DNA of 42,306 nucleotides from IMG/VR virus record IMGVR_UViG_2617271049_000012. One strand, 5' to 3'. This document shows, piece by piece, positions 11,929 to 39,428 of the stretch; within the stretch, counting starts at the first letter, position 1; each line of letters opens with the position of its first letter. The translations under genes and the position numbers were made by a program. The notes under the pieces are model-generated. The model worked only from the letters and a program-made list of their open reading frames with translations. It had not been told where the DNA came from and searched no databases. This DNA is from a virus (taxonomy: Duplodnaviria; Heunggongvirae; Uroviricota; Caudoviricetes).

Positions 11929-11930
11929 AT
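11924..11930. repeat. attL core (GCGCCAT), left copy of direct repeat
   Basis: Identical 7-mer at the right junction (22729..22735); flanking bases TTATG versus GTATG. Confidence 0.6.
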
Positions 11931-12059
11931 TTATGTCTATTATCTCCCCGTAGTTGTCGCCACCATTCATCAACTCCACTAAAACCCTTGATATGTCTGG
12001 AATGTCGTTTTTTGTATTTATGATGACCGTTCATTACCTTTCGTGTTTTTCGCGGTTTT

Positions 12060-12112
12060 GTGTATTGCAATGTGTATTGCAAGTTGGCGTTTGGATGGGG
12101 TGTGTATTGCAA
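12060..12112. repeat. Three direct copies of GTGTATTGCAA near attL, upstream of int (candidate arm-type or regulator binding sites)
   Basis: Copies at 12060-12070, 12072-12082 and 12102-12112; related copies near attR (22633..22654). Confidence 0.55.
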
Positions 12113-12131
12113 ATTGACGTGTAGGCTACAT

Positions 12132-13373: not shown

Positions 13374-13374
13374 T

Positions 13375-13632
13375 ATGTCAGTTTATTCACTTGTTGATGA
13401 AAAAGATTTTACTGCAATGCCGGATATTGATCGTGTCATTCGTGAAAAAGAATGCGTGGCACTTACTACGCTGGCAAATTCAACACGCTGGAAACTGGAA
13501 AAGACAGGTAAGTTCCCAAAACGTATTAAGATTGGTGAACGTGCCGCTGGCTATCGTCTCTCGGAGATTCAGGCGTGGATCCGTGGCGATTGGCACCCAG
13601 GATGGAAACCGGAAAAAACAAAACAGCAATAA
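13375..13632 (+). CDS. alpA: AlpA-family transcriptional regulator/excisionase
   Basis: Small HTH protein with AlpA-like motif (TGKFPKRIKIGERAAGYRLSEIQAWI); overlaps the int stop. Confidence 0.8.
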   Translation: MSVYSLVDEKDFTAMPDIDRVIREKECVALTTLANSTRWKLEKTGKFPKRIKIGERAAGYRLSEIQAWIRGDWHPGWKPEKTKQQ

Positions 13633-13648
13633 CCAGGAGATAAACACA

Positions 13649-13673
13649 GCCCCGCTCAATGCGGGGTTTTTTG
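13649..13673 (+). terminator. Rho-independent terminator
   Basis: CCCCGC-TCAAT-GCGGGG hairpin followed by TTTTTTG. Confidence 0.6.
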
Positions 13674-13691
13674 TATGTGAGGTAAAAAGCG

Positions 13692-14270
13692 ATGAATAAA
13701 AATATTGCCGTGACGGGCAAAGGTGACGCTCGTCTAGTGAAAAAATTCTGTGATATTCGTGATCTGGTCGTTCTGCGCTTTGATGGTGTGAACGTTCGCG
13801 TGGTGTATCTGAACGGCGATCCGTGGTTTGTTGCAGTTGACGTGTGCGCTGCGCTGGAAATTGTTGATCACAAGGTTGCGTTACGCCGTCTCGATGATGA
13901 TGAAAAGGGGGAGTGTTTAATACCCACCCTTGGCGGAAATCAAACAATGCGAACTGTATGCGAGTCAGGTTTCTACAAACTAATAGCCCGTAGCCGCAAA
14001 GCAACGACGCCTGGCACGTTCGCCCATCGTTTCAGTAACTGGGTATTCAGAAATGTGATACCGGGTATCAGAAAAACGGGGGCTTATGGTATCCCGTGGG
14101 GCGCATTACAGGATTTTTCCCGCCGTAAAGAGCAATATCAGATAAGTGCCAGCGAGAAGGGGAGGGAGCTACAGGCATGTAAGCGCAAAAAGCGTGAGCT
14201 GGAGGAAGAAGAAAAAAGGCTGATACGTGAATATCAGCCTGAGTTTTACTTTGGTGAGCGTATTCAGTAA
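13692..14270 (+). CDS. BRO-N domain protein (antirepressor-like)
   Basis: N-terminal Bro-N pattern (LRFDGVNVRVVYLNGDPWFVAVDVCAALEI...ESGFYKLIARSRKA); charged coiled-coil C-terminus. Confidence 0.75.
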   Translation: MNKNIAVTGKGDARLVKKFCDIRDLVVLRFDGVNVRVVYLNGDPWFVAVDVCAALEIVDHKVALRRLDDDEKGECLIPTLGGNQTMRTVCESGFYKLIARSRKATTPGTFAHRFSNWVFRNVIPGIRKTGAYGIPWGALQDFSRRKEQYQISASEKGRELQACKRKKRELEEEEKRLIREYQPEFYFGERIQ

Positions 14271-14552
14271 CCACTCGCAGTGCTGATTATACGGTACATC
14301 GTGTTAACCGGGAAGCTACCCACCAGCAAGGCAAAATCTTCTGCTAAAAAATGATATATGGTCAGCCGTCCGGAAAGCATGAAATTTTACAAAAATGGAA
14401 AATGAAGATTTTTATTGTGCTGGTGGGTAAAAACAAAAAGCGCCCCGTTGCCGGAGCGCCTTTGTGAACAATTAACCTACTGCGCAAAAAATGAATCTGA
14501 GCAGTGGGATTATATCAACCGTGTGACGAAGCGCCACAATTGCCGGATAACA

Positions 14553-14583
14553 GGCAAAACAAAGGCCACCCGCTACGGTGGCC
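14553..14583 (-). terminator. Rho-independent terminator for the minus-strand small-gene pair
   Basis: GGCCACC-CGCTAC-GGTGGCC hairpin with an A run on the + strand upstream (a U run on the minus-strand transcript). Confidence 0.5.
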
Positions 14584-14686
14584 CTTCAACACAAGCTACA
14601 CGTTATCCCCAACGCATGAGCATCACCAACAATGCCACATTTGCGGCTAGTGGGCAATGTGATCAGTGTGCTGGCTTGCTGGTGGG

Positions 14687-14884
14687 CTATTCCTGCTCTT
14701 TAGCATCGCCATGCTGCGATGTTTTCCAGGTATGCGATCCCATTTTTGTGCGCCTGTACTCTTTAAGGAACTTCTCAAGGACAAACGCACATGGTGCGAA
14801 TCTTTCCTGTTCTTGTTCGCTTACCGCGTTTTTGCGTTGTTTTTTCCTGGATGAGGATAATTTCTTTAATGATTTGTCAGTCAT
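14687..14884 (-). CDS. Small basic protein, paralog of the adjacent ribbon-helix-helix-like repressor
   Basis: 65-aa ORF between the RHH gene and a minus-strand terminator; shares ...SEQEQ...F.....FVLE... and the C-terminal AKEQE with 14942..15139. Confidence 0.4.
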   Translation of the reverse strand: MTDKSLKKLSSSRKKQRKNAVSEQEQERFAPCAFVLEKFLKEYRRTKMGSHTWKTSQHGDAKEQE

Positions 14885-14941
14885 CGTAGATACCTGTAAC
14901 CCAGTGCGCCACAGTTCACCGCACCACAGCGCTGGTGATGG

Positions 14942-15139
14942 TTACTCCTGCTCTTTGGCCTTCCGGCGCTGTTCATATTTTAATTTGCGTCCACAGGCAT
15001 CTAAGACCCATGCGGAAAAATTAGCACTAGGATTAGTTAATTTTTCTTGTTCAACACTGGCATCAATCCCATCTATAAGCTCGTGCGGGAATCGAATGTT
15101 TTTCTTTGCTGATTTGTTGTTTGTGTTTCCGCTAGACAT
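14942..15139 (-). CDS. Putative ribbon-helix-helix (Arc/Mnt-like) repressor
   Basis: 65 aa; N-terminal beta-strand-like KNIRFPHELIDGID; GAGGTG RBS 7 nt upstream of ATG; palindromic operators immediately upstream. Confidence 0.5.
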   Translation of the reverse strand: MSSGNTNNKSAKKNIRFPHELIDGIDASVEQEKLTNPSANFSAWVLDACGRKLKYEQRRKAKEQE

Positions 15140-15165
15140 TGGTACACCTCATTTAAATGGATTTG

Positions 15166-15246
15166 ATGGGCGCACACAATACAGCAAAAAAAGTGAGAAG
15201 TTAAGTATTGACATGTGCGCACACATAATTTTAATCTGTGCGCACA
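15166..15246. promoter_or_regulatory. Divergent control region with three palindromic operators TGTGCGCACA (one imperfect) overlapping a TTGACA -35 element
   Basis: Sites at 15168-15178 (GGGCGCACACA, imperfect), 15214-15223 and 15237-15246 (perfect 10-bp palindromes); TTGACA at 15208-15213. Confidence 0.65.
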
Positions 15247-15344
15247 GTTTGGGTTGCATTGCTCAAATTAAGCAACGCCCCGCAGTGCTCGCAACACATG
15301 CAGGGCGTCTAACCACCAACGATAGCAATAGTATCGAGGTAGCT

Positions 15345-15548
15345 ATGTTAAATCATACCACACACCCGCAAGGGCGGGACTCGCACAACCTGAATAAATA
15401 CATCTGGCGTTTTATCGCCCTGAGCACGGCACAGCCGCGCGTGATTACCATTGAGGCCACCAGCGAACAGGAAGCACGCCAGCAATCCCCGGCTGGCTGC
15501 GTGATGGTATTCGCCGCTCGTATTCGTCAGGAGGTGCGCCATGATTAA
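15345..15548 (+). CDS. Small satellite protein, possibly Icd-like (weak recollection only)
   Basis: First + strand ORF downstream of the operator region (MLNHTTHPQ...YIWRFIALSTAQPRVITIEATSEQEARQQ...); lies inside a spurious 377-aa track ORF. Confidence 0.4.
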   Translation: MLNHTTHPQGRDSHNLNKYIWRFIALSTAQPRVITIEATSEQEARQQSPAGCVMVFAARIRQEVRHD

Positions 15549-15753
15549 CCTGTCACTTACCGACCTTAACCGCATTCAGTTTCGTGAGAAATTTACCGGG
15601 CAGCTACTGGTCAATGTGGATAAAGGTCGCGTGGTGTGTAATTACCACCTGCCAGATGAAGCCATTGTCGCAACAAGGGAATCATTACAGGAACTCGCAG
15701 AACGTGCCGGAATGATTAACGCGAATATTCAGGGGGTGAGACATGTGCAATAA
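15541..15753 (+). CDS. Hypothetical small protein (70 aa)
   Basis: ATG overlapping upstream stop (ATGA); part of a tightly packed + strand operon. Confidence 0.45.
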   Translation: MINLSLTDLNRIQFREKFTGQLLVNVDKGRVVCNYHLPDEAIVATRESLQELAERAGMINANIQGVRHVQ

Positions 15754-15982
15754 CCCACGTCCGGACGCAGCCGCCGAAGCCATCAAAACGCTGATGCACG
15801 CGCTGATTGATATTTCATGCACGGCAGCAATCGCAGAAAAATACATTACCAGAGAGACGGAATATACAGGGGAAATAATCCCCCATTCGCTGGCCTACGC
15901 ACAGCTTACCGCTGATATGGCACTGAATGAGGCCAGGGCTATCCTGATTGCTGATTGTGAAAATGGGGGGGGTTATGCGTGA
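15743..15982 (+). CDS. Hypothetical small protein (79 aa)
   Basis: Overlapping-start operon member; no domain recognised. Confidence 0.4.
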   Translation: MCNNPRPDAAAEAIKTLMHALIDISCTAAIAEKYITRETEYTGEIIPHSLAYAQLTADMALNEARAILIADCENGGGYA

Positions 15983-16208
15983 TGATCGTTTTAATGCCCT
16001 GAAACAGGAATTTGATGGCGCACCGGAAGATACAGATATTGCGCTGTTATGTGTTGCTGACATGGTAAAAGCTGCATGTTTTTTACTGGAAACCGCCGAA
16101 CATTCAGGAACGGGTAGCGATATTCTCAATATTGCGTCGGACTATGCGGAATATGTGGCAGAGACGCGTTACAGAAGTAAATTCCCGGAGGGGGTGAGCC
16201 ATGCATGA
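15948..16208 (+). CDS. Hypothetical small acidic protein (start ambiguous: 15948, 15963 or 15975)
   Basis: Operon member; GGGGG RBS-like tract before ATG 15975. Confidence 0.4.
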   Translation: MLIVKMGGVMRDDRFNALKQEFDGAPEDTDIALLCVADMVKAACFLLETAEHSGTGSDILNIASDYAEYVAETRYRSKFPEGVSHA

Positions 16209-16434
16209 TATTTACAATGACACAGTAGACCATGCATACAGCGCACTTGCTTACAGTGAAAACATGCTTGAAATATTGCGCTTATGGCTTGAAACGCTTG
16301 GCGATAATGAAAGAGATAAACGCAACAGCAATATTGCAACAGCATTAATAACGCTTCTTGAGCCTGTAATAAATGAACTGCAAGAAATAGACATCTTGCA
16401 CGACAGATATAAAGAGCCACACACCGGAGAATAA
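16201..16434 (+). CDS. Hypothetical small protein (77 aa)
   Basis: ATG overlapping previous stop; operon member. Confidence 0.4.
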   Translation: MHDIYNDTVDHAYSALAYSENMLEILRLWLETLGDNERDKRNSNIATALITLLEPVINELQEIDILHDRYKEPHTGE

Positions 16435-16439
16435 AAACC

Positions 16440-16739
16440 ATGAAAAAGAAAAATTCTGGCTTTACTGCCAGCGGCCCCGCTCGGCCTGAAATCCGCCCCG
16501 GCGATATTTTCCGGGATAACTACGGCGGCACGGTAACGATTAAAAGTATTGCCGGACGGTGCGTTACTTACCGCCGTGATGGGTACAGCTACGACTGCGT
16601 GATGCCTGTTTATCAGTTCCGGCGTGATTTTTCTCTGGAACAGGCCGCACCACACAAACAGCCCACCAGCAACGCAAAGGCACGGGCGAACATTCAGAAA
16701 ATGAAAAACATGATTAACGCATTCAGGGGTAAAAAATGA
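16440..16739 (+). CDS. Hypothetical small basic protein (99 aa)
   Basis: Operon member directly upstream of rep; stop overlaps the rep start. Confidence 0.4.
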   Translation: MKKKNSGFTASGPARPEIRPGDIFRDNYGGTVTIKSIAGRCVTYRRDGYSYDCVMPVYQFRRDFSLEQAAPHKQPTSNAKARANIQKMKNMINAFRGKK

Positions 16740-18151
16740 AACTGGCACCGAACTTAAAAAAACAGCCGCACGACAAAATGACCGAAGTCATTATTTTTGC
16801 GGGTAGTGATGCCTGGGCGCACGCGAAACAATGGCAGGAGCAGGACGGGCGACTTGCTGGCGACAATGTTCCGCCTGTATGGCTTGGAGACAACCAGCTT
16901 GACGAACTGGCAGACCTGAAAATCATCGATGATGGTCGCTATTGTGTCCGGCTGTACAAGGCAGGCCACATCAAGCCGTCAAATATTAATGCCATCGGGC
17001 AAAAGCTGGCGGCGGCAGGTGTACGGGATGCGAATTATTACCCTGAGGGAATGCACAGCCAGAAGCTGGAGAACTGGCACGACTACCTGCAACGGATCCG
17101 CGAACAGACAGAGCGCGGGGAAATACTTACTGACGAGCAATACAGCCAGCGAAAAACCACGCTACCAATGAGCATTGGATCTGCAGGGTACGACACACAG
17201 CTTGATTATGTCGTTAAGGGCGTGATTCCGGCTAATTCATTGTGCAGCACATACGGCTCGAGCGGTTCCTATAAATCGTTCCTCGCGTGTTCCTGGGCGT
17301 GTCATGTTGCCACGGGTCGCCACTGGGGAGGCCGCAGGGTGGCGCATGGTTCGGTGATGTATGTCGTCGGTGAAGGGGGGATAGGTGTCCCCCGTCGTAT
17401 CAAGGCATGGGAAATCGTTAATGATGAACGGGTGGAAAATCTGTACCTGGTAAACCGCCCGATTTTTCCGGCAGTCCCGCTTGATGTCGATGAAATGGTC
17501 ATCGCTTCCCGCCAGGTTGAACGGGAAACGGGTAAACCGGTACGCATGATTATTCTGGATACGCTGGCGCGTTGCTTTGGCGGTAATGATGAAAATGACG
17601 CGCGGGATATGGGGGCGTTTATCCGTGGATGTGACGAACTGAAACGACGCACAGGGGCCACGGTGCTGGTGGTTCACCATTCCGGCAAGGATGAAACAAA
17701 GGGGGCGCGTGGTTCCAGTGCATTTCGTGCATCTCTGGACGCTGAATACCGTATTCGCCGTGAAGGTGCGGACAGTGAAGCCCTGGTTATCTCCTGCACC
17801 AAAATGAAGGACGCGGAGGAACTGAAAGAGGCTGCATATGATTTACGCGTGGTGGAGCTTTTTACCGACACTGACGGGGAGTTAATCACGTCGCTGGTGG
17901 TTGTGGATAAGCCGCGCCCACCTGTTGAACTGGAGCGCATCGAGGAGGCCGGGAACAAGACGGAGAATCATGCCGCGCTATGGCAGTGCATCAGAACGCG
18001 AACAGCACACGGGGAGGCGTGCACTATCGCCCTTCTCCGCGACGATATGAAAAAGCTGGGGTATGAAATGAAAAACTTCCGGCGCTGGCTGTACAAGCTG
18101 GAAAGCGACGGCGTAATCGCTATTGACGGTGATTATGTGCGCCCACTGTAA
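16736..18151 (+). CDS. Replication initiator/helicase (RepA-like RecA-fold ATPase with N-terminal extension)
   Basis: Walker A-like YGSSGSYKSF and Walker B-like RMIILDTLARCFGG; iteron array immediately downstream. Confidence 0.7.
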   Translation: MKLAPNLKKQPHDKMTEVIIFAGSDAWAHAKQWQEQDGRLAGDNVPPVWLGDNQLDELADLKIIDDGRYCVRLYKAGHIKPSNINAIGQKLAAAGVRDANYYPEGMHSQKLENWHDYLQRIREQTERGEILTDEQYSQRKTTLPMSIGSAGYDTQLDYVVKGVIPANSLCSTYGSSGSYKSFLACSWACHVATGRHWGGRRVAHGSVMYVVGEGGIGVPRRIKAWEIVNDERVENLYLVNRPIFPAVPLDVDEMVIASRQVERETGKPVRMIILDTLARCFGGNDENDARDMGAFIRGCDELKRRTGATVLVVHHSGKDETKGARGSSAFRASLDAEYRIRREGADSEALVISCTKMKDAEELKEAAYDLRVVELFTDTDGELITSLVVVDKPRPPVELERIEEAGNKTENHAALWQCIRTRTAHGEACTIALLRDDMKKLGYEMKNFRRWLYKLESDGVIAIDGDYVRPL

Positions 18152-18353
18152 AAAGTGAGGAGCAAAAGTGAGGATAGCGGGTAATTTAACAAAAAATCAG
18201 CGCTACTCCTCACTTTCTCACCTGTATATAGGTCAAAAAGTGAGGAATAAAAAATACATTGCAAAACAACGCATTACAGAAGAAAAAAAACAGGTGAGGA
18301 GCAGGACGGGAATAACAAAAAGTGAGGAATAAAAGTGAGTAGAGGTGAGGAAT
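18150..18353. repeat. Iteron array (about 8 copies of AAAGTGAGGA in both orientations): putative satellite replication origin
   Basis: Copies at about 18153, 18165, 18207 (inverted), 18236, 18291, 18318, 18331 and 18343, within AT-rich DNA 3' of rep. Confidence 0.7.
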
Positions 18354-18603
18354 GACCAGAAAAACCAGAGATAAGACAGCACCAAAATATCGCGCATTAG
18401 ACATGACAGAGCACGCCTTAAAGGTGGCAATCAGAACAATAGACCGCCATGCCGGAGAAGGATACGCAAAAGCACATCCAGAACTGATACGCGCATTCAT
18501 GACCACAGCGGCGGCAAACTTTGCCACGCTGACAGAACGGGAGATTGCCGAAGCGGAACAGGTGACAACCATCAACGTTAAAAACGGAGAGCATACAGCA
18601 TGA
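18352..18603 (+). CDS. Hypothetical protein (83 aa)
   Basis: ATG right after the iterons; stop overlaps the ssb start. Confidence 0.4.
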   Translation: MTRKTRDKTAPKYRALDMTEHALKVAIRTIDRHAGEGYAKAHPELIRAFMTTAAANFATLTEREIAEAEQVTTINVKNGEHTA

Positions 18604-19022
18604 CAGCACAGATAGCGGCTTACGGGCGGCTGGTGGCTGACCCGCAGTTAAAGACCACCAGCAAAGGGACACAAATGGCGATGGCGAGTATGGCGGTTCC
18701 CCTTCCGTGCAGCCAGGCAGATGACGGAACGGCGACGATGTGGTTATCCGTCCTGGCGTTTGGCAGGCAGGCCGACGCACTGGCAAAGCACCACAAAGGC
18801 GAACTGGTGAGCGTGGCGGGTAACATGCAGGTAAGCCAGTGGACAGGCCAGAACGGCGAAACGCGGCAGGGCTGGCAGGTTATCGCAGACAGCGTAATCA
18901 GTGCCAGAACGGCGCGACCGGGCGGCAAAAAAGGCCAGCAGGGCCAGGCTACTGACGCACTGAACAGGGCAAAACAACAGGCGGGAAATGATGATCCGTA
19001 CGGGGATAACATACCGTTTTAA
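18600..19022 (+). CDS. ssb: Single-stranded DNA-binding protein (SSB-like)
   Basis: OB-fold-like core, Gly/Gln-rich linker and acidic C-terminal tip (DDPYGDNIPF) resembling the SSB DDDIPF tail. Confidence 0.7.
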   Translation: MTAQIAAYGRLVADPQLKTTSKGTQMAMASMAVPLPCSQADDGTATMWLSVLAFGRQADALAKHHKGELVSVAGNMQVSQWTGQNGETRQGWQVIADSVISARTARPGGKKGQQGQATDALNRAKQQAGNDDPYGDNIPF

Positions 19023-19035
19023 GCAACGAGTGACA

Positions 19036-19063
19036 GAAGCCGGGATTTTTCCCGGCTTTTTTG
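19036..19063 (+). terminator. Rho-independent terminator after ssb
   Basis: AGCCGGG-ATTTTT-CCCGGCT followed by TTTTTTG; a second hairpin (19076-19100) with an upstream A run could terminate minus-strand transcription. Confidence 0.6.
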
Positions 19064-19196
19064 TGCGCAAAAAAAATCCCCCGGGATGAGGTTCCGGGGG
19101 ATTTCACGCCGCTAACGTGATTAGCGCTGAATGACTCTGTGGTACAAGGAGTAAAACCACGGCATCATGATTTCATGATTTGCAACAACAGTCAAT

Positions 19197-19219
19197 ATCA
19201 TTGCAAAAAATGCAATGAT
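19197..19219. promoter_or_regulatory. Perfect palindrome ATCATTGCA-AAAAA-TGCAATGAT upstream of the satellite capsid operon (candidate activator/operator site)
   Basis: 9-bp inverted arms around a 5-bp A spacer; shares the ATTGCAA core with the repeats at both island ends; preceded by direct repeats CATGATTT. Confidence 0.5.
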
Positions 19220-19280
19220 GATTAAAATCATGAATGACTTTTCGTTATGTTTATTTTTTAGTCAAAGAGGAATCTCATTT

Positions 19281-19487
19281 ATGGGAACACAGAAGCCGGG
19301 CGGTGTATCCGTGTACATCAGCCCCGATATTATCGCCGCACTTAATGCGCGCTTTGAGGAGAACGCAGAGGCAGGAAAAAAAATCGGCCTTGATCCGTTG
19401 TGCCTGGTGAAGCCGTCAGTCGGCTGGATGGTACGCAGCCATTTACGCGCTGCGCTTGGTATGAATCAGCCTCATGGGGGTGAGTAA
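19281..19487 (+). CDS. Hypothetical small protein preceding the capsid gene
   Basis: ATG with AAGAGGAA RBS; stop overlaps the capsid ATG (TAATG). Confidence 0.4.
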   Translation: MGTQKPGGVSVYISPDIIAALNARFEENAEAGKKIGLDPLCLVKPSVGWMVRSHLRAALGMNQPHGGE

Positions 19488-20542
19488 TGACAGCGCCGCA
19501 ACTGGTAAGCACACCAACGCTACTGAAAAATATCGGGCGCGAAGATGTGCCGGAATTTAAATTTAATCCACTCTTTACTACGTTGTTCTTTCCGAACGTC
19601 GCTACTTTCAGCACCAGAGATATTGCACTTGATACGCTGGATATTGAAAACGTGGTCATGAGTCCGTTTTGTTCTCCAATGTCAGGCAGCCAGGTTATGC
19701 GTGACAAAGGTTTCACAACGAACACGTTCACGCCGGGTTATATGAAGCCCAAACACGTTATTGATCCCACCAAAACAATCATGCGCATGCCTGGAGAACA
19801 GATCGGCAATGGTCAGTCTTCCCCGGCACTACGCCGCGTAAAAATGGTTCACGACAGCCAGAAAAAACAGCTTGCTGCCATCAAAGCGCGTGTTGAATGG
19901 CTGGCGGTCAATGCCATCACAACAGGCCGTAACGTTATTGAGGGCGAAGGCATTGAGCGTTATGAAATTGACTGGGGATTACCCGAAACCAATCATATTA
20001 CGCAGGCTGGCGGGAAAGAATGGTCAAAACAGGATGCCGAAACGTTTGATCCGATAAGCGACATTGAGGCTTACGCTGATTTTTCCGAAGGTACGGTAAA
20101 TATTATCGTCATAGGTGGCGAAGCCTGGCGTATTTTGCGCTCGTTCCGTCGATTCCGCGAACTAATGGACACGCGTCGCGGTTCAAACTCGTCACTTGAA
20201 CTTGCGCTAAAAGATTTGGGCGGCGTTGTCAGCTTCAAGGGGTATCTCGGTGATGTGGCGATCGTGGTTTATTCCGGTCGTTATGACGACGAAAACGGGC
20301 AGCAGCAATATTTCCTGAAACAAAACATGATGGTTTTCGGCAATACCGAAAATAAAGGCCTTGTTGCTTATGGTGCCATCATGGATCAGGACGCGGCACG
20401 CGAGGGATTTTCTGAGGGGATGTACTACCCGAAAAATTATATCGTACCGGGCGATCCGGCGATTGAATACGTGCAGACGCACAGCGCCCCGCAGCCAGTA
20501 CCCGTGGATATTGGTCGCTTTGTTACCGTCGAAGTGAAATAA
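19487..20542 (+). CDS. Major capsid protein, lambda gpE-like (satellite-encoded paralog)
   Basis: 351 aa colinear with lambda gpE (F.F.PLF...FF.....PGY.KPKH...NITQAGG.EWSK.D..TFDP..D.EAY......NII...WR.LRSF..F.E..DTRRGSNS.LE.A.KDLG..VS.KGY.GDVAIVVYSGRY...). Diverged from the host-phage E at 25544..26572. Confidence 0.9.
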   Translation: MTAPQLVSTPTLLKNIGREDVPEFKFNPLFTTLFFPNVATFSTRDIALDTLDIENVVMSPFCSPMSGSQVMRDKGFTTNTFTPGYMKPKHVIDPTKTIMRMPGEQIGNGQSSPALRRVKMVHDSQKKQLAAIKARVEWLAVNAITTGRNVIEGEGIERYEIDWGLPETNHITQAGGKEWSKQDAETFDPISDIEAYADFSEGTVNIIVIGGEAWRILRSFRRFRELMDTRRGSNSSLELALKDLGGVVSFKGYLGDVAIVVYSGRYDDENGQQQYFLKQNMMVFGNTENKGLVAYGAIMDQDAAREGFSEGMYYPKNYIVPGDPAIEYVQTHSAPQPVPVDIGRFVTVEVK

Positions 20543-20552
20543 AGGGGATCGT

Positions 20553-20882
20553 ATGCCAACACCTTACACGCAATTCCTTTCCGGCACGCAGGAACTGGTC
20601 AGCACGCTGGCCTGTTTTGCCAGTGCCGGAGAAATTAAAGCGAGAACTCCGCTGATGCAGAACGGCGCGGGCCTGATGGTTGAGTGGGACGGTACACCCG
20701 GTAAGGCGGTGTATCTGACCATATCGGACATTAACACGGCCACAAAAAACCGCGCACAGGTTTATAAGTGCGGGGTTTTTAATATCGATGAAATTAACTG
20801 GCCTGATACAGCGGACACGTTCGAGAAAAAAGTGTCGGCTTTTGTTGGTTCCGGTATTTCCGTGCAGCCTTTAGGGCAATAA
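20553..20882 (+). CDS. Head decoration protein, lambda gpD-like (satellite-encoded)
   Basis: 109 aa; gpD-like motifs (TPLM......WDGT.G.AV.......YK.G.F....WPD.A.....AF.G..IS) directly after the capsid gene. Confidence 0.65.
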   Translation: MPTPYTQFLSGTQELVSTLACFASAGEIKARTPLMQNGAGLMVEWDGTPGKAVYLTISDINTATKNRAQVYKCGVFNIDEINWPDTADTFEKKVSAFVGSGISVQPLGQ

Positions 20883-20896
20883 TTTTGTGGTGATTT

Positions 20897-21322
20897 ATGA
20901 CTGAGAAAGCAAATTCAACCAGAGCATTGATCATGGCACTGCCTGAGGCGCAGAAATACCCGACGCTTGCGGAAAATCTCGCAAATAATGGCGCATCACT
21001 GACAGAAGCCCGAACGGTGCTTACTGCAAAGGCTGAGAGTGATAAACAGCGCATAGAGGGTATCAAGGCGTTACCGCTGGCATCAAAATACCCTGAGTTC
21101 ACCAGTAAGCTGATTGAGTGTGGTTCTGAAGTAATGACAGTAACCTATGCACAAACGTTACTGGCTGCCGTGGATGCCCAGGCAATGATGCAGGAAAAGA
21201 AAACGGCTTTTCTGTTTGAAGCGTACATGGAAAAGCACAGCCCGAAATGTGTTGGGCCAGCAGCCGGTGATGGCAACGCCGGACTGACCGAAGATGAAAA
21301 GCTGTTGCTGTCTGTTAAGTAA
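20897..21322 (+). CDS. Putative scaffold protein (Nu3-like) with ALPEA/ALPLA repeat motifs
   Basis: Two repeats (ALPEAQKYPTLAENLANNGASLTEARTVL / ALPLASKYPEFTSKLIECGSEVMTVTYAQTLLAAVD) resembling the ALPEAKGREQLA..LAEQPGMTVEQAKTLLAAAP repeats in the host-phage C/Nu3. Confidence 0.5.
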   Translation: MTEKANSTRALIMALPEAQKYPTLAENLANNGASLTEARTVLTAKAESDKQRIEGIKALPLASKYPEFTSKLIECGSEVMTVTYAQTLLAAVDAQAMMQEKKTAFLFEAYMEKHSPKCVGPAAGDGNAGLTEDEKLLLSVK

Positions 21323-21336
21323 CTGAAATGAACGTT

Positions 21337-21368
21337 CGCGAGGCTGGCAAGGTCTCGCGATTTTTTTT
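21337..21368 (+). terminator. Rho-independent terminator
   Basis: TCGCGAG-loop-CTCGCGA followed by TTTTTTTT. Confidence 0.6.
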
Positions 21369-21394
21369 GTATCCGGAACGGTGGTGATCGCCCC

Positions 21395-21480
21395 AATTTT
21401 CACGGGTCCTTTCCAGAATCAGAAACACCGCGGGGCGGCAGACGCGCAAAAACGCGCTATTTATGAAAATTTTTCAGGAA
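21395..21480 (+). other. Satellite cos site (cosQ/cosN-like) mimicking the host-phage cos
   Basis: CACGGGTCCTTTCC...CGCGGGGCGGCAGACGCGC...CGCTATTTATGAAAATTTTTCAGG parallels the host cos at 8250..8330; directly upstream of the satellite terS. Confidence 0.75.
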
Positions 21481-21620
21481 AAAGCATGTCGGTACTTCTC
21501 GCGCATAACTGTTTGTTTTTATTAAAATCAACCACCAGGAACATACGACATCATAAAGCCCAAAAATCCTGTTTTTTTGGCGTTTCATGTCGGAACTGGT
21601 TTTTGATAAGGAATTGATAG

Positions 21621-22223
21621 ATGAATGTTAATAAAAATAATCTTGCGAAGATTTTTGGCGTCGATCCGCGCACGATTGAACGATGGCAAACGCAAGGGCT
21701 TCCCCATGTATCTGGTGGGGGTAAAGGTGTGGAGGTGACTTTCGACTCTGCGCAGGTGATCGAATGGTATGCACAGAGGGAGAAGGACATCGAAAACGAA
21801 AAACTCCGCAGGGAACTTGATGATTTACGTGCCGATGGTGAATCAGATTTACAGCCAGGCACAACAGAATACGAACGCTATCGCCTCACCAAAGCACAGG
21901 CGGACGGGCAGGAGCTAAAGAACACCAAGGAGACAGGGGAAGTTATCGATACTGAGTTCGTGCTCTATGCGCTTCGTGGGCTGGCGAGCCAGATTTCTTC
22001 GATCATGGATAGTTTACCGCTCACAATGCAAAGGCAGTTCCCCGCGATGACTCAGACAATGATCGAGGGACTGAGGAAGGAAACAGCACGGGCCTGTAAT
22101 GCGTGCGCTAAAACTGCCGATAACCTGCCCCGCATTCTGGAAGACTACCTGATGGAAACAACCGGAAACGTGCCGGAGAAATTACGGCAACAGAAAGGTG
22201 AGTGGCAGCCGCGCAATTATTGA
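21621..22223 (+). CDS. Terminase small subunit, Nu1-like (satellite-encoded paralog)
   Basis: N-terminal region near-colinear with the host Nu1 ([79 protein letters not shown]); C-terminal part diverged and longer (200 aa). Confidence 0.85.
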   Translation: MNVNKNNLAKIFGVDPRTIERWQTQGLPHVSGGGKGVEVTFDSAQVIEWYAQREKDIENEKLRRELDDLRADGESDLQPGTTEYERYRLTKAQADGQELKNTKETGEVIDTEFVLYALRGLASQISSIMDSLPLTMQRQFPAMTQTMIEGLRKETARACNACAKTADNLPRILEDYLMETTGNVPEKLRQQKGEWQPRNY

Positions 22224-22233
22224 ACAAAACTGA

Positions 22234-22296
22234 GAAAGGATCTGATAACGTCATTTTTGGCCCAAAATGACCACTGTCAGATCCTTTCTTTTTTTG
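22234..22296 (+). terminator. Long-stem terminator after the satellite terS
   Basis: AGAAAGGATCTGA...TCAGATCCTTTCT inverted repeat followed by TTTTTTT. Confidence 0.55.
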
Positions 22297-22470
22297 ATGA
22301 TTTTACCATTAAACAATGAGTTACAGAGAAGAAGAACGGATCTGACTTTTCCCGAAAAATTTTCATAAACAGTTAAGAATTGCGCGTATGGCTACCCCCG
22401 GTGTTTTATTTTCCAGGAAGGACCCGCCACAATTACGGCATTGTTTTCCATCACCACGGAGGCCATGACA

Positions 22471-22656
22471 ATGACCGAAGCCGAAATGCTCAAAATGATT
22501 CGCCGCGTTACCGGATCCAGCAAGACAGCAGGCAAACAGGAGACCACGCAGCCGGACAGCGTGATAGCCGAAAATTACGCGCGTGTGGTGGCTGAGGTGA
22601 TGCGCCGTGACGGTATTCACAAGCAACAATTTGCGTATTGCAATGTGTATTGCTAA
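22471..22656 (+). CDS. Hypothetical small protein at the right end of the island
   Basis: GGAGG RBS 9 nt upstream of ATG 22471; 3' end runs through the GTATTGCAA repeats near attR. Confidence 0.3.
   Translation: MTEAEMLKMIRRVTGSSKTAGKQETTQPDSVIAENYARVVAEVMRRDGIHKQQFAYCNVYC
22633..22654. repeat. Two direct copies of (G/T)CGTATTGCAA / GTGTATTGC near attR
   Basis: Same motif and orientation as the three copies near attL. Confidence 0.55.
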
Positions 22657-22728
22657 CCCTCCAAACGGGTGAAATATGCAAACATAACATATTGTTTTGT
22701 CTTTTTATTTTTTCGTATCTTTTCATAA

Positions 22729-22735
22729 GCGCCAT
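22729..22735. repeat. attR core (GCGCCAT), right copy of direct repeat
   Basis: Identical to 11924..11930; its last base pair is the first base of the portal codon ATG (M) that resumes the reading frame. Confidence 0.6.
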
Positions 22736-23492
22736 GTATGCCGCCACGATTGAATCCACACTGGATTCGGAAAAAGCGTTTGAATATATCGCCGGGGTGG
22801 GAGATGGAGGTAAAAATCCCCTGAACACCATCATGAAAGGCTACGCGCGTTATTACGCCACCAATACGGTAAAACTGGGAGGGGTCCGTATTCCGCATCT
22901 TTACCCGGGAGATTCACTGAATCTGCAGACAGCCCAGAATGCGGATAATGGTTTTTCTGAACTGGAAAAGGCGCTGTTACGTTACATTGCTGCCGGACTG
23001 GGTGTGTCGTATGAGCAGCTTTCCCGGGATTATTCACAGGTCAGTTATTCCAGTGCCAGGGCATCCGCCAATGAGTCGTGGCGGTATTTTATGGGAAAAC
23101 GAAAATTTGTGGCCAGTCGCCTGGCGTCACAGATGTTTGCCTGCTGGCTGGAGGAAGCCCTTATTCGTGGTGTGATCCGTCCGCCGAAATCCCGTTTCTC
23201 ATTCTGGGAGGCCCGTTCCGGGTGGTGCCGTGCCGAGTGGATTGGTGCCGGTCGTATGGCGATTGATGGCCTTAAGGAAGTGCAGGAAGCGGTGATGCGC
23301 ATTGAAGGCGGCCTGAGTACATACGAGAAAGAGCTGGCCCTGATGGGGGATGACTATCAGGAGATTTTCCGCCAGCAGCTACGGGAAACTCAGGAGCGAC
23401 AGGCTGCCGGTCTTCCGCGTCCGGTCTGGATAAAGGACGCGTTTCAACAGCAGATCCGACAGACAACGGGAGAAAAAGGCGATGCGCTGTAA
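22734..23492 (+). CDS. B: Portal protein B, 3' portion (about 252 codons)
   Basis: MYAATIES...DSLNLQTAQ..DNG.S..E..LLRYIAAGLGVSYEQLSR.Y.Q.SYS.ARASANESW.YFMG.RKFVAS...WIG.GRMAIDGLKEVQEAVM.IE.GLSTYEKE colinear with the lambda gpB C-terminal half; joins in frame to 11928. Confidence 0.85.
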   Translation: MYAATIESTLDSEKAFEYIAGVGDGGKNPLNTIMKGYARYYATNTVKLGGVRIPHLYPGDSLNLQTAQNADNGFSELEKALLRYIAAGLGVSYEQLSRDYSQVSYSSARASANESWRYFMGKRKFVASRLASQMFACWLEEALIRGVIRPPKSRFSFWEARSGWCRAEWIGAGRMAIDGLKEVQEAVMRIEGGLSTYEKELALMGDDYQEIFRQQLRETQERQAAGLPRPVWIKDAFQQQIRQTTGEKGDAL

Positions 23493-25098
23493 TTTATCAC
23501 ATATTGCCGCGATGGCATTTAATGAGCCGCTTTTACTGGAACCCGCCTATGCGCGGGTTTTCTTTTGCGCACTGGGTAAGGAGATGGGGGCGGGCAGCCT
23601 TGCCGTTCCGCAGCAGGCCGTTCAGCTTGATGCCGATGGTATGCAGCTGGCGGTTACCGATTATATGACTGGTGGTCCGCGTCCGGTAAAGAGTTACCAG
23701 GTGAAAAATGGTATTGCCATTCTGCCGGTGAGCGGCACGCTGGTACATAAAATGGGTACCCTGCGGCCATATTCCGGTATGACCGGTTATGACGGTCTGA
23801 CTGCCCGTCTTAAGTCAGCGGTGAACGACCCGGATGTACGCGGCATTTTACTGGATATCGACAGTCCGGGTGGTCAGGCTGCCGGGGCGTTTGACTGTGC
23901 TGACATGATTTACCGTCTGCGGGAACAGAAGCCCGTGTGGGCGCTGTGTAATGACATGGCCTGTTCAGCCGCCATGTTGCTGGCGGCGGCCTGTACGCGT
24001 CGGCTGGTCACGCAGACGGCAAAAATTGGTTCGATTGGTGTGATGATGGCGCACACCAGTTACGAGAAACAACTGGCACAGGAAGGCGTGGATATCACGC
24101 TGATTTACTCCGGGCAGCACAAGGTTGACGGCAACAGTATTCAGGCGTTGCCGACAGGTGTGCGTGCGGATTTTCAGCGCCGTATTGATGAGGCCCGCCG
24201 GATGTTTGTCGACAAGGTGGCGCTTTATACGGGGCTGAGTTCAGAGGCGGTGATGAATACCGAGGCTGCCGTTTATGACGGTCAGGCAGGCATTGATACA
24301 GGCCTGGCTGATCAACTGATTAATGCTGCAGATGCCGTTGATGTAATGGTTTCTGCTCTGAACGACTCTGTTACACAGGAGAATACGATGACAACAAAAA
24401 ATCTCACCGTTGCTGAAGCGGTGTCCCGGGAAAATCAGCGCGTGATGGGGATCCTGAATTGTCAGGAGGCGAAAGGACGCGAAAAACTGGCGCAGATGCT
24501 GGCAGGTCAGCAGGGAATGTCAGTTGAGCAGGCAAAAACATTACTGGCGGCAGCACCGGTTGCCGGTACTGACAGCACAGGCGATCAGATTATGGCACTT
24601 CCGGAAGCAAAAGGGCGTGAACAACTGGCACGGACGCTGGCTGAACAGCCGGGAATGACGGTGGAGCAGGCGAAAACGTTACTGGCAGCGGCACCGGTTT
24701 CCGGTGCGGCAAGTACCGGCGAGCAGATTATGGCACTTCCGGAAGCAAAAGGGCGTGAACAACTCGCACAGGCGCTGGCTGAACAGCCGGGAATGACGGT
24801 GGAACAGGCGAAAATGCTACTGGTAGCGGCACCGGCAACCGGTACGGCAAGTACCGGCGATCAAATTATTGCGTTGCCGGAAGCAAAAGGACGCGAAAAA
24901 CTGGCACAGGCGCTGGCTGAACAACCTGGAATGACAGTGGAGCAGGCGAAAACGCTGCTGGCAGCTGCGCCATCAGTATCGCAACCGTCACAGGTAACAC
25001 TTTTTGAGCGCTTCATGGCACAGCATGCCGCCAGTGCCGTTTCCGGTGGCGGAACTGCCGGGAACGGGGAAGAAGAACTGCTGATGAGTATGCCGTAA
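23482..25098 (+). CDS. C: Head protein C (S49-family prohead protease) with embedded Nu3-like scaffold region
   Basis: Colinear with lambda gpC (HIA.MAFNEPL.LEPAYARVFFCAL...PVSGTLV......PYSGMTGY.G...RL..A..DP.V.GILLD.D.PGG...GAFDCAD.I.R.R...PVWAL.NDM.CSA..LLA.A..RRLVTQTA..GSIGVMMAH); C-terminal tandem repeats. Confidence 0.9.
   Translation: MRCNLSHIAAMAFNEPLLLEPAYARVFFCALGKEMGAGSLAVPQQAVQLDADGMQLAVTDYMTGGPRPVKSYQVKNGIAILPVSGTLVHKMGTLRPYSGMTGYDGLTARLKSAVNDPDVRGILLDIDSPGGQAAGAFDCADMIYRLREQKPVWALCNDMACSAAMLLAAACTRRLVTQTAKIGSIGVMMAHTSYEKQLAQEGVDITLIYSGQHKVDGNSIQALPTGVRADFQRRIDEARRMFVDKVALYTGLSSEAVMNTEAAVYDGQAGIDTGLADQLINAADAVDVMVSALNDSVTQENTMTTKNLTVAEAVSRENQRVMGILNCQEAKGREKLAQMLAGQQGMSVEQAKTLLAAAPVAGTDSTGDQIMALPEAKGREQLARTLAEQPGMTVEQAKTLLAAAPVSGAASTGEQIMALPEAKGREQLAQALAEQPGMTVEQAKMLLVAAPATGTASTGDQIIALPEAKGREKLAQALAEQPGMTVEQAKTLLAAAPSVSQPSQVTLFERFMAQHAASAVSGGGTAGNGEEELLMSMP
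24451..24990 (+). repeat. Four tandem 138-bp (46-aa) in-frame repeats within the C/Nu3 coding region
   Basis: Period confirmed by ATTATGGCACTTCCGGAAGCAAAAGG at 24589 and 24727 and ATTATTGCGTTGCCGGAAGCAAAAGG at 24865; protein repeat IMALPEAKGREQLA..LAEQPGMTVEQAKTLLAAAP..G..STG.Q. Confidence 0.85.
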
Positions 25099-25138
25099 GC
25101 GGGGATCCGTGATTCAGATAAATCAGGAGACTGAGAAA

Positions 25139-25474
25139 ATGATTAAAACCACCACAGAAAAGCGCGCGGACGGGCGCATTTTTGCCGGAAGCGATCCGGT
25201 ATATACCGCAACAGGTACCAGTGGTATCAGTGTTGCCACGCCTTCACTGACGCCACTGATGCTGGATGACGCCAGCGGAAAACTGGTGGCATGGGATGGT
25301 CAGAAAGCCGGAACGGCTGTGGGGGTGCTGGTACTGGCGCTGGCCGGGACCGAGCCCACACTGACGTACTACAAAAGCGGTACGTTTGCCACCGAATCGC
25401 TGGTCTGGCCGGATTCGGTGGATGCGGTGAAAAAAGCCAACGCGTTTGTGGGAAGTGCCATCAGCCACGCCTGA
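25139..25474 (+). CDS. D: Head decoration protein D
   Basis: AGGAGA RBS; gpD-like (TPLMLDDASGKLVAWDG...AVGVLVLA.....TLTYYKSGTF..E.LVWPD........AFVGSAIS). Confidence 0.85.
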   Translation: MIKTTTEKRADGRIFAGSDPVYTATGTSGISVATPSLTPLMLDDASGKLVAWDGQKAGTAVGVLVLALAGTEPTLTYYKSGTFATESLVWPDSVDAVKKANAFVGSAISHA

Positions 25475-25498: not shown

Positions 25499-25527
25499 CG
25501 GGTCGTGATGCGGCCCGTTTGTGTTTT
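25499..25527 (+). terminator. Possible attenuator hairpin between D and E
   Basis: CGGGTCG-TGATG-CGGCCCG (one G-U pair) followed by TTTGTGTTTTT; weak. Confidence 0.3.
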
Positions 25528-25543
25528 TAAAGGAAAGTCAATT

Positions 25544-26572
25544 ATGGGGTTATTTACCACGCGTCAGTTGCTCGGCTACACCGAGCAGAAAGTGAAATTC
25601 CGTGCGCTGTTTCTGGAGCTGTTTTTTCGTCGTACGGTCACTTTCCATACTCAGGAAGTGATGCTGGATAAAATCACCGGAAAAACACCGGTTGCGGCAT
25701 ATGTGTCTCCGGTTGTGTCAGGTAAGGTACTGCGCAGTCGTGGTGGTGAAACCCGCGTGTTACGCCCCGGCTATGTTAAACCAAAACACCGGCTGGATTA
25801 TCAGCAGGCGGTGGAGCGTCTTCCGGGGGAAGATCCGGCCCGTCTTAATGACCCGGCCTACCGTCGCCTGCGTATTCTGACTGACAACCTGAAACAGGAA
25901 GAACAGGCGATTGTGCAGGTGGAAGAAATGCAGGCGGTCAGCGCTGTTCTGCAGGGTAAGTACACCATGAGCGGTGAACAGTTTGAGACGGTGGAAGTGG
26001 ATTTTGGACGTTCTGCCGCCAATAACATTACGCAGGCAGGGGGACGCGAATGGTCAAAACAGAATGCTGACACCTTTGATCCGACGCATGATCTGGATGC
26101 GTACTGCGATTTTGCTTCCGGTACCATCAATATTGCGATTATGGACGGTACTGTCTGGCGTATGCTGAACGGTTTTAAACTGTTTCGTGAAAAACTGGAT
26201 ACCCGCCGTGGCTCAAAATCTGAACTGGAAACCGCGCTGAAAGATCTGGGGTCCGTGGTTTCTTTTAAAGGTTATTACGGTGATCTGGCCATCATGGTGG
26301 CGAAAACAACGTATGTTGATGAAAACGGGGATGAGCAGCGTTATCTGCCGGAAGGCACACTGATTCTTGGAAACACTCAGGTGGAGGGTGTCCGTTGTTA
26401 TGGCGCAATCCAGGATAACCAGGCGCTGAGTGAAGGGATCACCTCTGCAATTCGTTATCCGAAACACTGGTTAGAGGTGGGGGACCCGGGGTGCGAATAT
26501 ACCATGACGCAGTCTGCGCCGTTGATGGTGTTGCCGGATCCGGACGCGTTTGTGGTAGTTCAGGTGAAATAA
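25544..26572 (+). CDS. E: Major capsid protein E
   Basis: Colinear with lambda gpE (...YVSP.VSG.V.RSRGG......PGYVKPKH.........RL..EDP..L.DPAYRR.RI...N...EE.AI.QVEEMQAVSAVL.GKYTM.GE.F..VEVD.GRS...NITQ.GG.EWSK...). Confidence 0.95.
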   Translation: MGLFTTRQLLGYTEQKVKFRALFLELFFRRTVTFHTQEVMLDKITGKTPVAAYVSPVVSGKVLRSRGGETRVLRPGYVKPKHRLDYQQAVERLPGEDPARLNDPAYRRLRILTDNLKQEEQAIVQVEEMQAVSAVLQGKYTMSGEQFETVEVDFGRSAANNITQAGGREWSKQNADTFDPTHDLDAYCDFASGTINIAIMDGTVWRMLNGFKLFREKLDTRRGSKSELETALKDLGSVVSFKGYYGDLAIMVAKTTYVDENGDEQRYLPEGTLILGNTQVEGVRCYGAIQDNQALSEGITSAIRYPKHWLEVGDPGCEYTMTQSAPLMVLPDPDAFVVVQVK

Positions 26573-39418: not shown

Positions 39419-39428
39419 TGGGGTGAAT

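Follow-up and report, generated by a model that had tools for sequence, protein, structure and literature searches.

The window analysed here is a stretch of 42,306 nucleotides from a tailed virus (Caudoviricetes; IMG/VR record IMGVR_UViG_2617271049_000012). It contains a homologue of the lambda C gene, in which an S49 prohead protease is fused to a scaffold region carrying four tandem protein repeats, and, on its 5' side, a small scaffold gene that belongs to a satellite. The features concerned are as follows.

23482..25098, plus strand: gpC-homologue gene, S49 prohead protease fused to the scaffold region, 538 aa (open reading frame with Pfam and PHROG matches; named 'S49 family peptidase' in orthologous complete genomes)
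24377..24381, plus strand: Shine-Dalgarno AGGAG, 6 nt 5' of an internal in-frame ATG (read from the sequence)
24388..25098, plus strand: inferred nested Nu3-like scaffolding protein, 236 aa, with an N-terminal helix, four units and a C-terminal tail (start predicted from the Shine-Dalgarno and ATG and from homology with phage 21 gene 6)
24439..24576, plus strand: repeat unit 1 (RVMGILNCQEAKGREKLAQMLAGQQGMSVEQAKTLLAAAPVAGTDS), which has diverged most and corresponds to the one unit of lambda; it is matched best by unit 1 of other arrays (92%)
24577..24714, plus strand: repeat unit 2, with a dS of 0.15 to unit 3
24715..24852, plus strand: repeat unit 3; a one-unit deletion allele (PapRG-04-4, P0004) has its breakpoint where units 2 and 3 join
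24853..24990, plus strand: repeat unit 4; AF2 with a 50-sequence alignment predicts three short helices, pLDDT 90-94 over residues 1-40
24991..25095, plus strand: C-terminal tail (QVTLFERFMAQHAASAVSGGGTAGNGEEELLMSMP), a pattern common to phage 21 and the satellite scaffold
20897..21322, plus strand: satellite-encoded, putative Nu3-like scaffold, 141 aa, no protease domain, two diverged units and the conserved tail (BLASTP, PHROG and unit profile)

The assignment of the gene to lambda C/Nu3, made in the first-pass annotation, is confirmed by its domain content and by its location between portal and D/E homologues. The protein matches Pfam Peptidase_S49 (PF01343) at aa 146-290 with E=2.4e-33, which exceeds the curated cut-off, and PHROG 53 (head maturation protease) with E=1.4e-218. 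Near-invariant Ser and Lys columns are present in an alignment of 57 sequences. The C-terminal part of the portal (22638-23492) overlaps the start of the gene, and the D homologue (25109-25474) and the E homologue (25505-26572) follow on its 3' side; an intact prophage of strain EC11 has the same portal, protease/scaffold, D, E order. The internal AGGAG occupies a position homologous to the ribosome-binding site annotated for gene 6 of phage 21, and lambda C has an AGGAGG-ATG at the homologous place, while the RefSeq start of lambda nu3 is a different ATG, with no Shine-Dalgarno. As the array lies 3' of this strong internal ribosome-binding site, it is predicted to be present in both the full-length protease and the nested Nu3-like scaffold.

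The array consists of four in-frame 138-bp units at positions 24439-24990, and translation in the frame of ORF 23482-25098 gives four units of 46 aa. Four in-frame 138-bp repeats had been noticed at 24451-24990, which is the same array in the same frame, and Tandem Repeats Finder, the translation and codon shuffles all bear this out. Tandem Repeats Finder reports a period of 138 nt over 24465-24965 (3.6 copies, 84% matches, no indels, score 652), and a repeat search returned three 234-nt copies at a spacing of exactly 138 nt. In-frame self-identity is highest at a lag of 138, with 84.7% over 366 nt; 100 codon shuffles of the gene gave no more than 40%. Over the full 138 nt, units 2 and 3 have 91% nucleotide identity, unit 4 has 74-75% to units 2-3 (84-85% over the first 114 nt), and unit 1 has 59-69% to the other units.

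A unit profile was searched against 1.84 billion proteins, and 379 representative clusters were matched. Among the best 150 of these clusters there are 57 long proteins, of which 56 have a single unit and 54 have Peptidase_S49, with a median of 48 aa from the end of the unit to the C-terminus. Across these 150 diverse representative clusters, a single unit some 48 residues before the C-terminus is the usual arrangement, and multi-unit arrays are limited to one enterobacterial lineage. The 120 closest homologues have mostly three (n=74) or four units (n=40); five units were found in three proteins, and two units and one unit in one protein each. Large protein clusters dominated by four-unit alleles have 826, 470 and 153 member sequences, and in the array lineage about 1,500 member sequences with four units stand against about 200 with three, counts that reflect sequencing bias. 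In complete genomes, almost every close relative has four units, and the four-unit allele is absent from the deposited phage genomes in the collection searched. Across hundreds of phage lineages, no other element in the scaffold part of S49 protease-scaffold proteins is as conserved as this module.

Gain and loss of units by unequal recombination is visible among the alleles. The 492-aa alleles P0004 and PapRG-04-4 contain a unit 2/unit 3 chimera, P0001/P0003 contain a perfect duplicate unit, and P0044 and P0059 have larger duplications. In strain PapRG-04-4 exactly one unit is deleted, and its major capsid protein has 0/342 differences from that of the four-unit prophages; judging from these intact, selected prophage ORFs, three- and four-unit alleles appear to be tolerated with an identical capsid protein. 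Between paralogous units, dN/dS is 0.2-0.5 with dS reaching 1.7, and the orthologous array has a dN/dS of 0.15, compared with 0.06 for the protease part. Every unit is under purifying selection (dN/dS 0.15-0.5). The first-pass annotation had described a fourfold repeat expansion where lambda has a single related segment. The numbers stand, as the array has four units and lambda one, but a fresh one-to-four expansion does not: the three-unit array is old, since phage 21 (the 'Tri boxes' discussed below), Gifsy-1-like prophages of Salmonella and relatives in Klebsiella all have it, their units being positional orthologues, and within the window array only the unit 2/unit 3 duplication is recent.

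Each 46-aa unit is composed of a 37-aa core, predicted to form three helices, followed by a linker of about nine residues rich in Gly, Ser, Thr and Ala. Given an alignment, AlphaFold models every unit as a small module of three helices, with pLDDT of 90-94. Single-sequence AF2 of the whole 236-aa scaffold part was poor (pLDDT 54) and was used solely for the helix/linker pattern; it gives paired helices for each unit with low-confidence linkers between them, suggesting that the linkers are disordered. In the tail, AF2 predicts one helix, LFERFMAQHA, with pLDDT of about 70, and the remainder as disordered. The linkers were considered as possible sites of protease cleavage, on the model of the Ala|Gly site that follows from the mat_peptide of the lambda portal. 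No Pfam family covers the module, and no structure of it has been solved. When the PDB was searched by sequence, neither the 236-aa scaffold part nor the unit profile had a match below E=0.3; all matches in a fold comparison of the predicted unit were below significance, and no similarity in sequence or fold was found to the helix-turn-helix coat-binding domain of the P22 gp8 type.

The satellite protein at 20897..21322 had been said to carry two related units, and the alignment to the unit is significant: its two units match a profile built from prophage units only with E=3.4e-5 and 8.1e-4. Compared with the scaffold part of the prophage protein, BLASTP gives E=4e-12 and 36% identity over 138 aa, a match that includes the tail LFE.(F/Y)M..H...(L)L(M/L)S. 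PHROG 1999 is matched with E=1.1e-11, and the C-terminal part of PHROG 53 with E=1.4e-8. From these matches we take the 141-aa protein to be a true Nu3 homologue. In its units, EAQKYP and LASKYP replace EAKGRE, so that the near-invariant EAxGRE is absent from both; among the 150 representative clusters, KYP is found in the satellite protein alone. The satellite also has capsid and decoration genes of its own, whose products are only 46% and 41% identical to those of the prophage, and because of this it need not act on the capsid protein of the helper. Related satellites were found in prophages with one-, three- and four-unit scaffolds (three anecdotal cases compared), and one related satellite is without any scaffold gene.

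Taken with the mechanism proposed here, the array probably represents one of several copy numbers of a protein module that is conserved in the scaffold part of lambda-family S49 prohead protease/scaffold genes. Unequal homologous recombination between the copies adds, removes and homogenises units. The module itself may be a protein-binding domain through which scaffold/protease molecules associate with one another and/or with the portal or the capsid shell. Extra units would then give higher valency on a flexible string rather than an altered capsid geometry, and the exposed linkers could offer the protease access when the scaffold is dismantled.

Several other explanations were weighed against this reading. 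Tandem repeats are a classic source of assembly errors, and the array could have been expanded or collapsed in the assembly of the source genome. However, about 40 complete genomes are listed with a 1617-bp gene of equal length: about 17 complete E. coli genomes have the same four-unit gene at an identity of at least about 99%, and more than 20 further ones have a gene of identical length at 90-93%. In the genome of strain EC11 the array region was followed base by base. In addition, the units differ by 9-41% of their nucleotides, which makes the copies distinct enough for unambiguous assembly, and the full array is merely 552 bp. An artefact is very unlikely, to the point of being negligible, and the four-unit repeat is neither chance nor an assembly product. 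A role at the DNA or RNA level (protein-binding sites, a recombination hotspot or a structured RNA) instead of protein modules is highly improbable. The CPT annotation of phage 21 has CII-like motifs in the corresponding region, but between units the synonymous sites are near saturation (dS 0.9-1.7) while the protein is conserved, and minus-strand ORFs reach at most 51 aa. Scans of both strands of the array region gave no promoter-like sites and no Rfam match near threshold, and a terminator scan of both strands gave matches at chance level, all outside the array. The extra units might also be filler with no function, having arisen in a disordered region through replication slippage or unequal crossing-over and being tolerated since the scaffold is discarded after assembly. 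The variation in copy number from one to five with no visible effect on neighbouring genes, and a wider family that mostly has one unit, are consistent with such neutral expansion. The selection data argue against it, as all paralogous unit pairs have a dN/dS of 0.2-0.5 even at a dS of 0.9-1.7 and the orthologous array one of 0.15. Moreover, the extra units of three-unit arrays are retained as positional orthologues in Escherichia, Salmonella and Klebsiella prophages, and structure prediction gives a folded unit rather than a disordered one. Neutrality is in our judgement distinctly unlikely.

The satellite brings in the remaining alternatives. According to the first-pass annotation, unit number could tune head assembly and the units could be the interface for which the satellite scaffold competes. 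Such competition would resemble that of SaPI1 CpmB. The proposal is unlikely, although the satellite protein is a true homologue with two units and the conserved tail, SaPI1 CpmB is a precedent for a satellite scaffold sharing a motif with the scaffold of its helper, and the dominance of the four-unit allele (about 1,500 vs about 200 for three) is compatible with a preferred number. Against tuning stands the one-unit deletion in PapRG-04-4, since the capsid protein is identical with three or four units. Against competition stand the related satellites residing in one-, three- and four-unit prophages, the one with no scaffold gene, the satellite's own capsid protein, and the replacement of the near-invariant G-R-E motif in its units. 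These findings do not disprove competition, but no evidence from the sequences compared favours it. Finally, unit number could be an adaptive, rapidly switching character, in which the valency of the module alters the contact of the procapsid core with portal, protease or capsid proteins, and hence the vulnerability to PICI satellites with a degenerate two-unit scaffold copy, or to host sensors of head proteins; the loss of EAxGRE in the satellite would then be a specificity switch. We regard this scenario as quite improbable.

A variable number of conserved modules is the reading that we prefer. The repeat, conspicuous in a prophage gene that is common in E. coli, is real and under selection rather than an error of assembly, and it is now tied to the old, unexplained 'Tri boxes' of phage 21, with the unit defined as a confidently predicted small three-helix module. 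The natural alleles of one to five units, some beside an identical capsid protein, are a ready set of constructs for the binding partner of the module in lambda-type procapsid assembly. No new kind of system is revealed, copy number is linked to neither capsid type nor satellite in the data compared, and the practical value is modest.

Comparison with known systems places the array as follows. In size and topology the predicted unit resembles the domains of staphylococcal protein A, UBA/CUE domains and RuvA domain III, with sub-significant matches; staphylococcal protein A is also like the array in having modules strung on flexible linkers. For the satellite protein, the closest precedent is SaPI1 CpmB, likewise small and helical with a C-terminal motif in common with the helper scaffold. 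CpmB reportedly shares the C-terminal capsid-binding motif of the 80alpha scaffold and competes with that scaffold for the capsid protein. There is, however, no sequence relationship between the two, and the satellite here encodes its own capsid and decoration proteins.

In lambda gpC/Nu3, as is predicted for the gene in the window, an S49 protease comes together with a nested scaffold; a single homologous unit (GILNCEEAHGREEQARVLAETPGMTVKTARRILAAAP, E=8.4e-17) precedes the tail. The single related segment noted for lambda in the first-pass annotation was recovered by the unit profile. In lambda the unit follows a long low-complexity spacer in a protein of 439 aa, compared with 538 aa here. 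Interactions of lambda Nu3 with Nu3, C, B and E have been compiled, and the Nu3-E two-hybrid interaction is reported without being mapped to the unit (PMC3224144). The Gifsy-1-type gpC homologues of Salmonella (497-508 aa) have three-unit arrays whose units are positionally orthologous to those of phage 21. They differ from the window gene in copy number, in their older and more diverged units, and in sequence (about 58% protein identity).

The nearest counterpart is found in genes 5/6 of phage 21 (M81255; also OL657228), which are the same gene in the same head-operon position, with a nested start and ribosome-binding site like those predicted in the window, and with a similar C-terminal tail pattern. 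DNA identity to the window gene is 73% overall. An HMM of the window units matches phage 21 at aa 320-357, 370-406 and 417-452 (E=2.8e-21, 1.1e-14 and 1.6e-12), and these coordinates coincide with the M81255 features Tri1 box, Tri box and Tri3 box. In that GenBank annotation, which dates from the 1990s, the Tri boxes of gene 6 are recorded as 'function unknown'. The feature table is the sole source for them, as nothing was found in the open-access literature on repeats in Nu3-type scaffolds or on the 'Tri box'. By homology, the module in the window is the Tri box module, and the repeat is not new. Phage 21 has three mutually diverged units (about 57% identity within such arrays), whereas the four units of the window include three, units 2-4, with a likeness of about 89%. 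Because the window has four units, its relatives two to five, lambda one and phage 21 three, unit number is a variable and not a defining character of these genes.

The repeat array lies in an ORF of 538 amino acids (aa) in the head operon. An S49 peptidase domain occupies residues 146-290 (Pfam, E=2.4e-33), the full-length protein hits PHROG 53 ("head maturation protease") in four separate stretches (E=1.4e-218), and the neighbouring genes encode the portal and the homologues of lambda D and E. These features identify the ORF as a lambdoid prophage's gpC homologue, in agreement with the first-pass annotation, which had placed it in C/Nu3. The features are as follows.

22638-23492, C-terminal part of the lambda-family portal gene, 5' neighbour of the gpC homologue
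23482-25098, + strand, gpC-homologue ORF
24439, 24577, 24715 and 24853, + strand, starts of the four 46-aa units in the gene's frame, from translation
25109-25474, homologue of lambda decoration protein D, 3' neighbour of the gpC homologue
25505-26572, homologue of lambda major capsid protein E, 3' of the D homologue

Tandem Repeats Finder detected a 138-nt period at 24465-24965 (3.6 copies, 84% matches, no indels, score 652), and a repeat search of the window returned 234-nt copies at an exact spacing of 138 nt. At lag 138 the sequence is 84.7% identical to itself over 366 nt, against a maximum of 40% in 100 codon shuffles; together with the translation, these results bear out the proposed four in-frame 138-bp repeats. 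Each unit has a core of 37 aa, with the pattern (Q/G)I(M/L)ALPEAKGRE.LA..LAEQPGMTVEQAK.LLAAAP, followed by a linker of about nine residues rich in Gly, Ser, Thr and Ala.

The array is not an assembly artefact. About 17 complete E. coli genomes, most of them from bovine isolates, carry a gene of the same length (1617 bp) with an identity of approximately 99% or higher, and more than 20 additional complete genomes carry one with 90-93% identity. The units in the window differ from one another by 9-41% of nucleotides and therefore assemble unambiguously. The prophage of E. coli EC11 follows the window collinearly throughout (99% identity), and its portal gene is uninterrupted; an IS3 element inserted upstream of the EC11 terminase genes (L004, the EC11 locus, 7948-9110) is absent from the window. 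The 538-aa form also stands at the head of protein-database clusters with 826, 470 and 153 member sequences.

Unit number is naturally polymorphic, from one to five, as counted over the 120 closest database homologues.

Units per protein among the closest homologues
Five units: 3 proteins, 568-657 aa
Four units: 40 proteins, mostly E. coli, 538 aa
Three units: 74 proteins, mostly Salmonella, 497-508 aa
Two units: 1 protein, 449 aa
One unit: 1 protein, a lambda-type unit within a chimeric 743-aa protein

The unit profile matched 379 clusters (E up to 0.001) among 1.84 billion representative proteins. The best 150 of these clusters include 57 proteins of at least 380 aa, and 56 of these carry just one unit, the only array being in the cluster that represents the phage 21/window lineage; Peptidase_S49 is found in 54 of the 57, and the median distance from unit end to C-terminus is 48 residues. 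Therefore, one unit plus a tail, the C-terminal stretch after the last unit, is the ancestral architecture of the S49 protease-scaffold. Judged from this sampling of proteins, arrays are derived and confined to one enterobacterial lineage. In several entries (P0043, P0046, P0113 and P0117), the N-terminal part of gpC and its units are joined to an unrelated C-terminus, for example tail-fibre-like His/Gly repeats or a baseplate V annotation, with breakpoints directly after the last unit; these entries are probably prophage rearrangements or misassemblies.

In the three-unit arrays of phage 21 and its Salmonella and Klebsiella relatives, units are 73-86% identical to the unit at the same position elsewhere and 51-65% to their own neighbours, which makes the triplication an old event that has been kept. 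In the window lineage, on the other hand, units 2-4 resemble one another at about 89%, and the units that they match best in other arrays do not stand at the same positions, which indicates recent duplication, loss and conversion. In the 492-aa allele (P0004, 196 members, and also E. coli strain PapRG-04-4), exactly 46 aa are deleted and the unit left behind is a chimera of units 2 and 3; P0001 and P0003 contain a perfect duplicate unit, and P0044 and P0059, of the phage 21 lineage, contain larger internal duplications. Comparison of allele sequences thus shows unit number changing through unequal recombination, and the window array is a tidy example of modular repeat evolution within a scaffolding protein.

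Nei-Gojobori estimates gave a dS of 0.15 between units 2 and 3 and of 0.9-1.7 for all remaining paralogous pairs, with dN/dS of 0.2-0.5 in all pairs. For the orthologous array (window versus strain E41) dN/dS is 0.15, and for the protease part 0.06. Thus, each unit is constrained as protein by purifying selection. A role of the repeats at the DNA or RNA level is argued against by the near-saturated synonymous sites; promoter, terminator and Rfam scans of both strands of the repeat region gave no signal that stood out.

A Shine-Dalgarno sequence, AGGAG (24377-24381, + strand), precedes the in-frame ATG at 24388 by 6 nt. By homology, the pair corresponds to the ribosome-binding site and start annotated for gene 6 of phage 21, and to an AGGAGG-ATG in lambda C. 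Initiation at 24388, if it occurs, would give a 236-aa Nu3-type scaffolding protein that carries all four units between an N-terminal helix and the tail of 35 residues. The RefSeq start of lambda nu3 (833-1438 of L001, the lambda NC_001416 locus; 201 aa) is an ATG that has no Shine-Dalgarno sequence; the ATG preceded by AGGAGG, at residue 309 of C, lies 70 codons downstream of it and is the one that lines up with the annotated start of phage 21 gene 6 and the internal start in the window. The RefSeq start may warrant a check against protein data.

When AF2 was given the 236-aa scaffold part as a single sequence, the model was poor overall (pLDDT 54); four times it repeats a pattern of paired helices followed by a low-confidence linker. 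When unit 4 plus the tail was modelled with an alignment of 50 diverse single-unit relatives, the first 40 residues reached pLDDT 90-94 and showed three short helices; in the tail, a single helix (LFERFMAQHA) was predicted with medium confidence, and the end was disordered. The near-invariant positions are a hydrophobic core and E-A-x-G-R, where the first two helices meet. The hexapeptide EAKGRE occurs in 83 of 159 units, and G-R is kept in most other variants. The unit is thus a conserved, selected module with a predicted fold, and the array points to a small, widely conserved, uncharacterised domain.

The portal gene of the window is split by a satellite, with these features.

11116-11982, N-terminal part of the portal gene (C-terminal part, 22638-23492)
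11924-22740, PICI-type satellite of about 10.8 kb
11924-11935, core repeat GCGCCATTTATG
22729-22740, core repeat GCGCCATGTATG
20927-21034 and 21059-21172, units of the satellite scaffold

Its genes encode an integrase (int), RepA-type helicase, SSB, E-like capsid, D-like decoration protein, 141-aa Nu3-like scaffold (20897-21322) and Nu1-like small terminase (TerS), with no portal, protease or large terminase among them, a layout that agrees with the core layout of proteobacterial PICIs (PMC10085698). As EC11 carries the same prophage with an intact portal gene, precise excision would restore the gene. Of 5426 complete E. coli genomes, 1998 contain some match to the satellite DNA; in many other genomes the satellite is far from the phage.

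The first-pass annotation had seen two related units in the satellite scaffold and proposed that repeat number could be the interface for which this protein competes. The homology holds: the protein aligns with the prophage scaffold part (BLASTP, E=4e-12) through two units and the conserved tail, and by this alignment is a genuine Nu3 homologue. Competition, however, finds no support in the available evidence, and three observations weaken the idea. The head proteins of the satellite are only 36-57% identical to those of the prophage, and both satellite units (EAQKYP and LASKYP) have K-Y-P for the G-R-E of EAxGRE in most other family units. Among the best 150 of the 379 clusters, KYP occurs only in that of the satellite scaffold (P0130), and it may mark altered binding or cleavage specificity. 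Furthermore, related satellites reside in the morphogenesis regions of prophages with other unit numbers: in E. coli CFSAN064035 (L007, 4173-16173) one with a similar integrase, and an HTH protein in place of the scaffold gene, splits the portal gene of a one-unit lambda-type prophage, and in PapRG-04-4 (L005, 21074-31082) one with a different integrase lies between head-completion and baseplate-type tail genes of a three-unit prophage. The functional interpretation of the repeats given in the first-pass annotation is not supported.

We infer that the unit is a protein-binding module. It is located in the part common to the protease and the predicted nested scaffold, and is the only scaffold-part element conserved across the family, the tail varying by lineage. 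For lambda Nu3, interactions with itself, C, portal B and E have been reported (compiled in PMC3224144). Three-unit and four-unit alleles are both found beside an identical major capsid protein (no differences in 342 residues among the window, EC11 and PapRG-04-4). In the most economical model, scaffold molecules would associate with one another or with the protease through the unit, or the unit would contact some other conserved head component. Lineage-specific contacts would then fall to the tail, and added units would increase valency along a flexible string with geometry unchanged. Our confidence is high for the identity of the module and its evolutionary dynamics, and low to moderate for the binding model.

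Three other short imperfect tandem repeats (40416-40465, 41265-41333 and 41576-41645; periods of 21, 30 and 27 nt; 2.3-2.6 copies) fall within a large ORF at 39423-41753, downstream of the J-like tail tip gene. This ORF probably encodes a side tail fibre with peptide repeats.

Lambda and phage 21 proteins were searched with a profile made from the four window units. Lambda gpC has one unit (aa 363-399, E=8.4e-17), in line with the single related segment named in the first-pass annotation, and phage 21 gp5/gp6 has three (aa 320-357, 370-406 and 417-452; E=2.8e-21 to 1.6e-12). Exactly these three stretches are annotated in GenBank M81255 ("Bacteriophage 21 head gene operon") as repeat_region "Tri1 box", "Tri box" and "Tri3 box", with the remark "function unknown; putative". 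The four-unit allele was found in no deposited phage genome of the collection searched; the nearest deposited phages differ from the window in having three units (phage-21-like phages and Gifsy-1) or one (lambda, N15, phi80 and HK225). The window array is a four-copy member of a repeat family annotated ever since the phage 21 head operon was sequenced, rather than a new kind of system.
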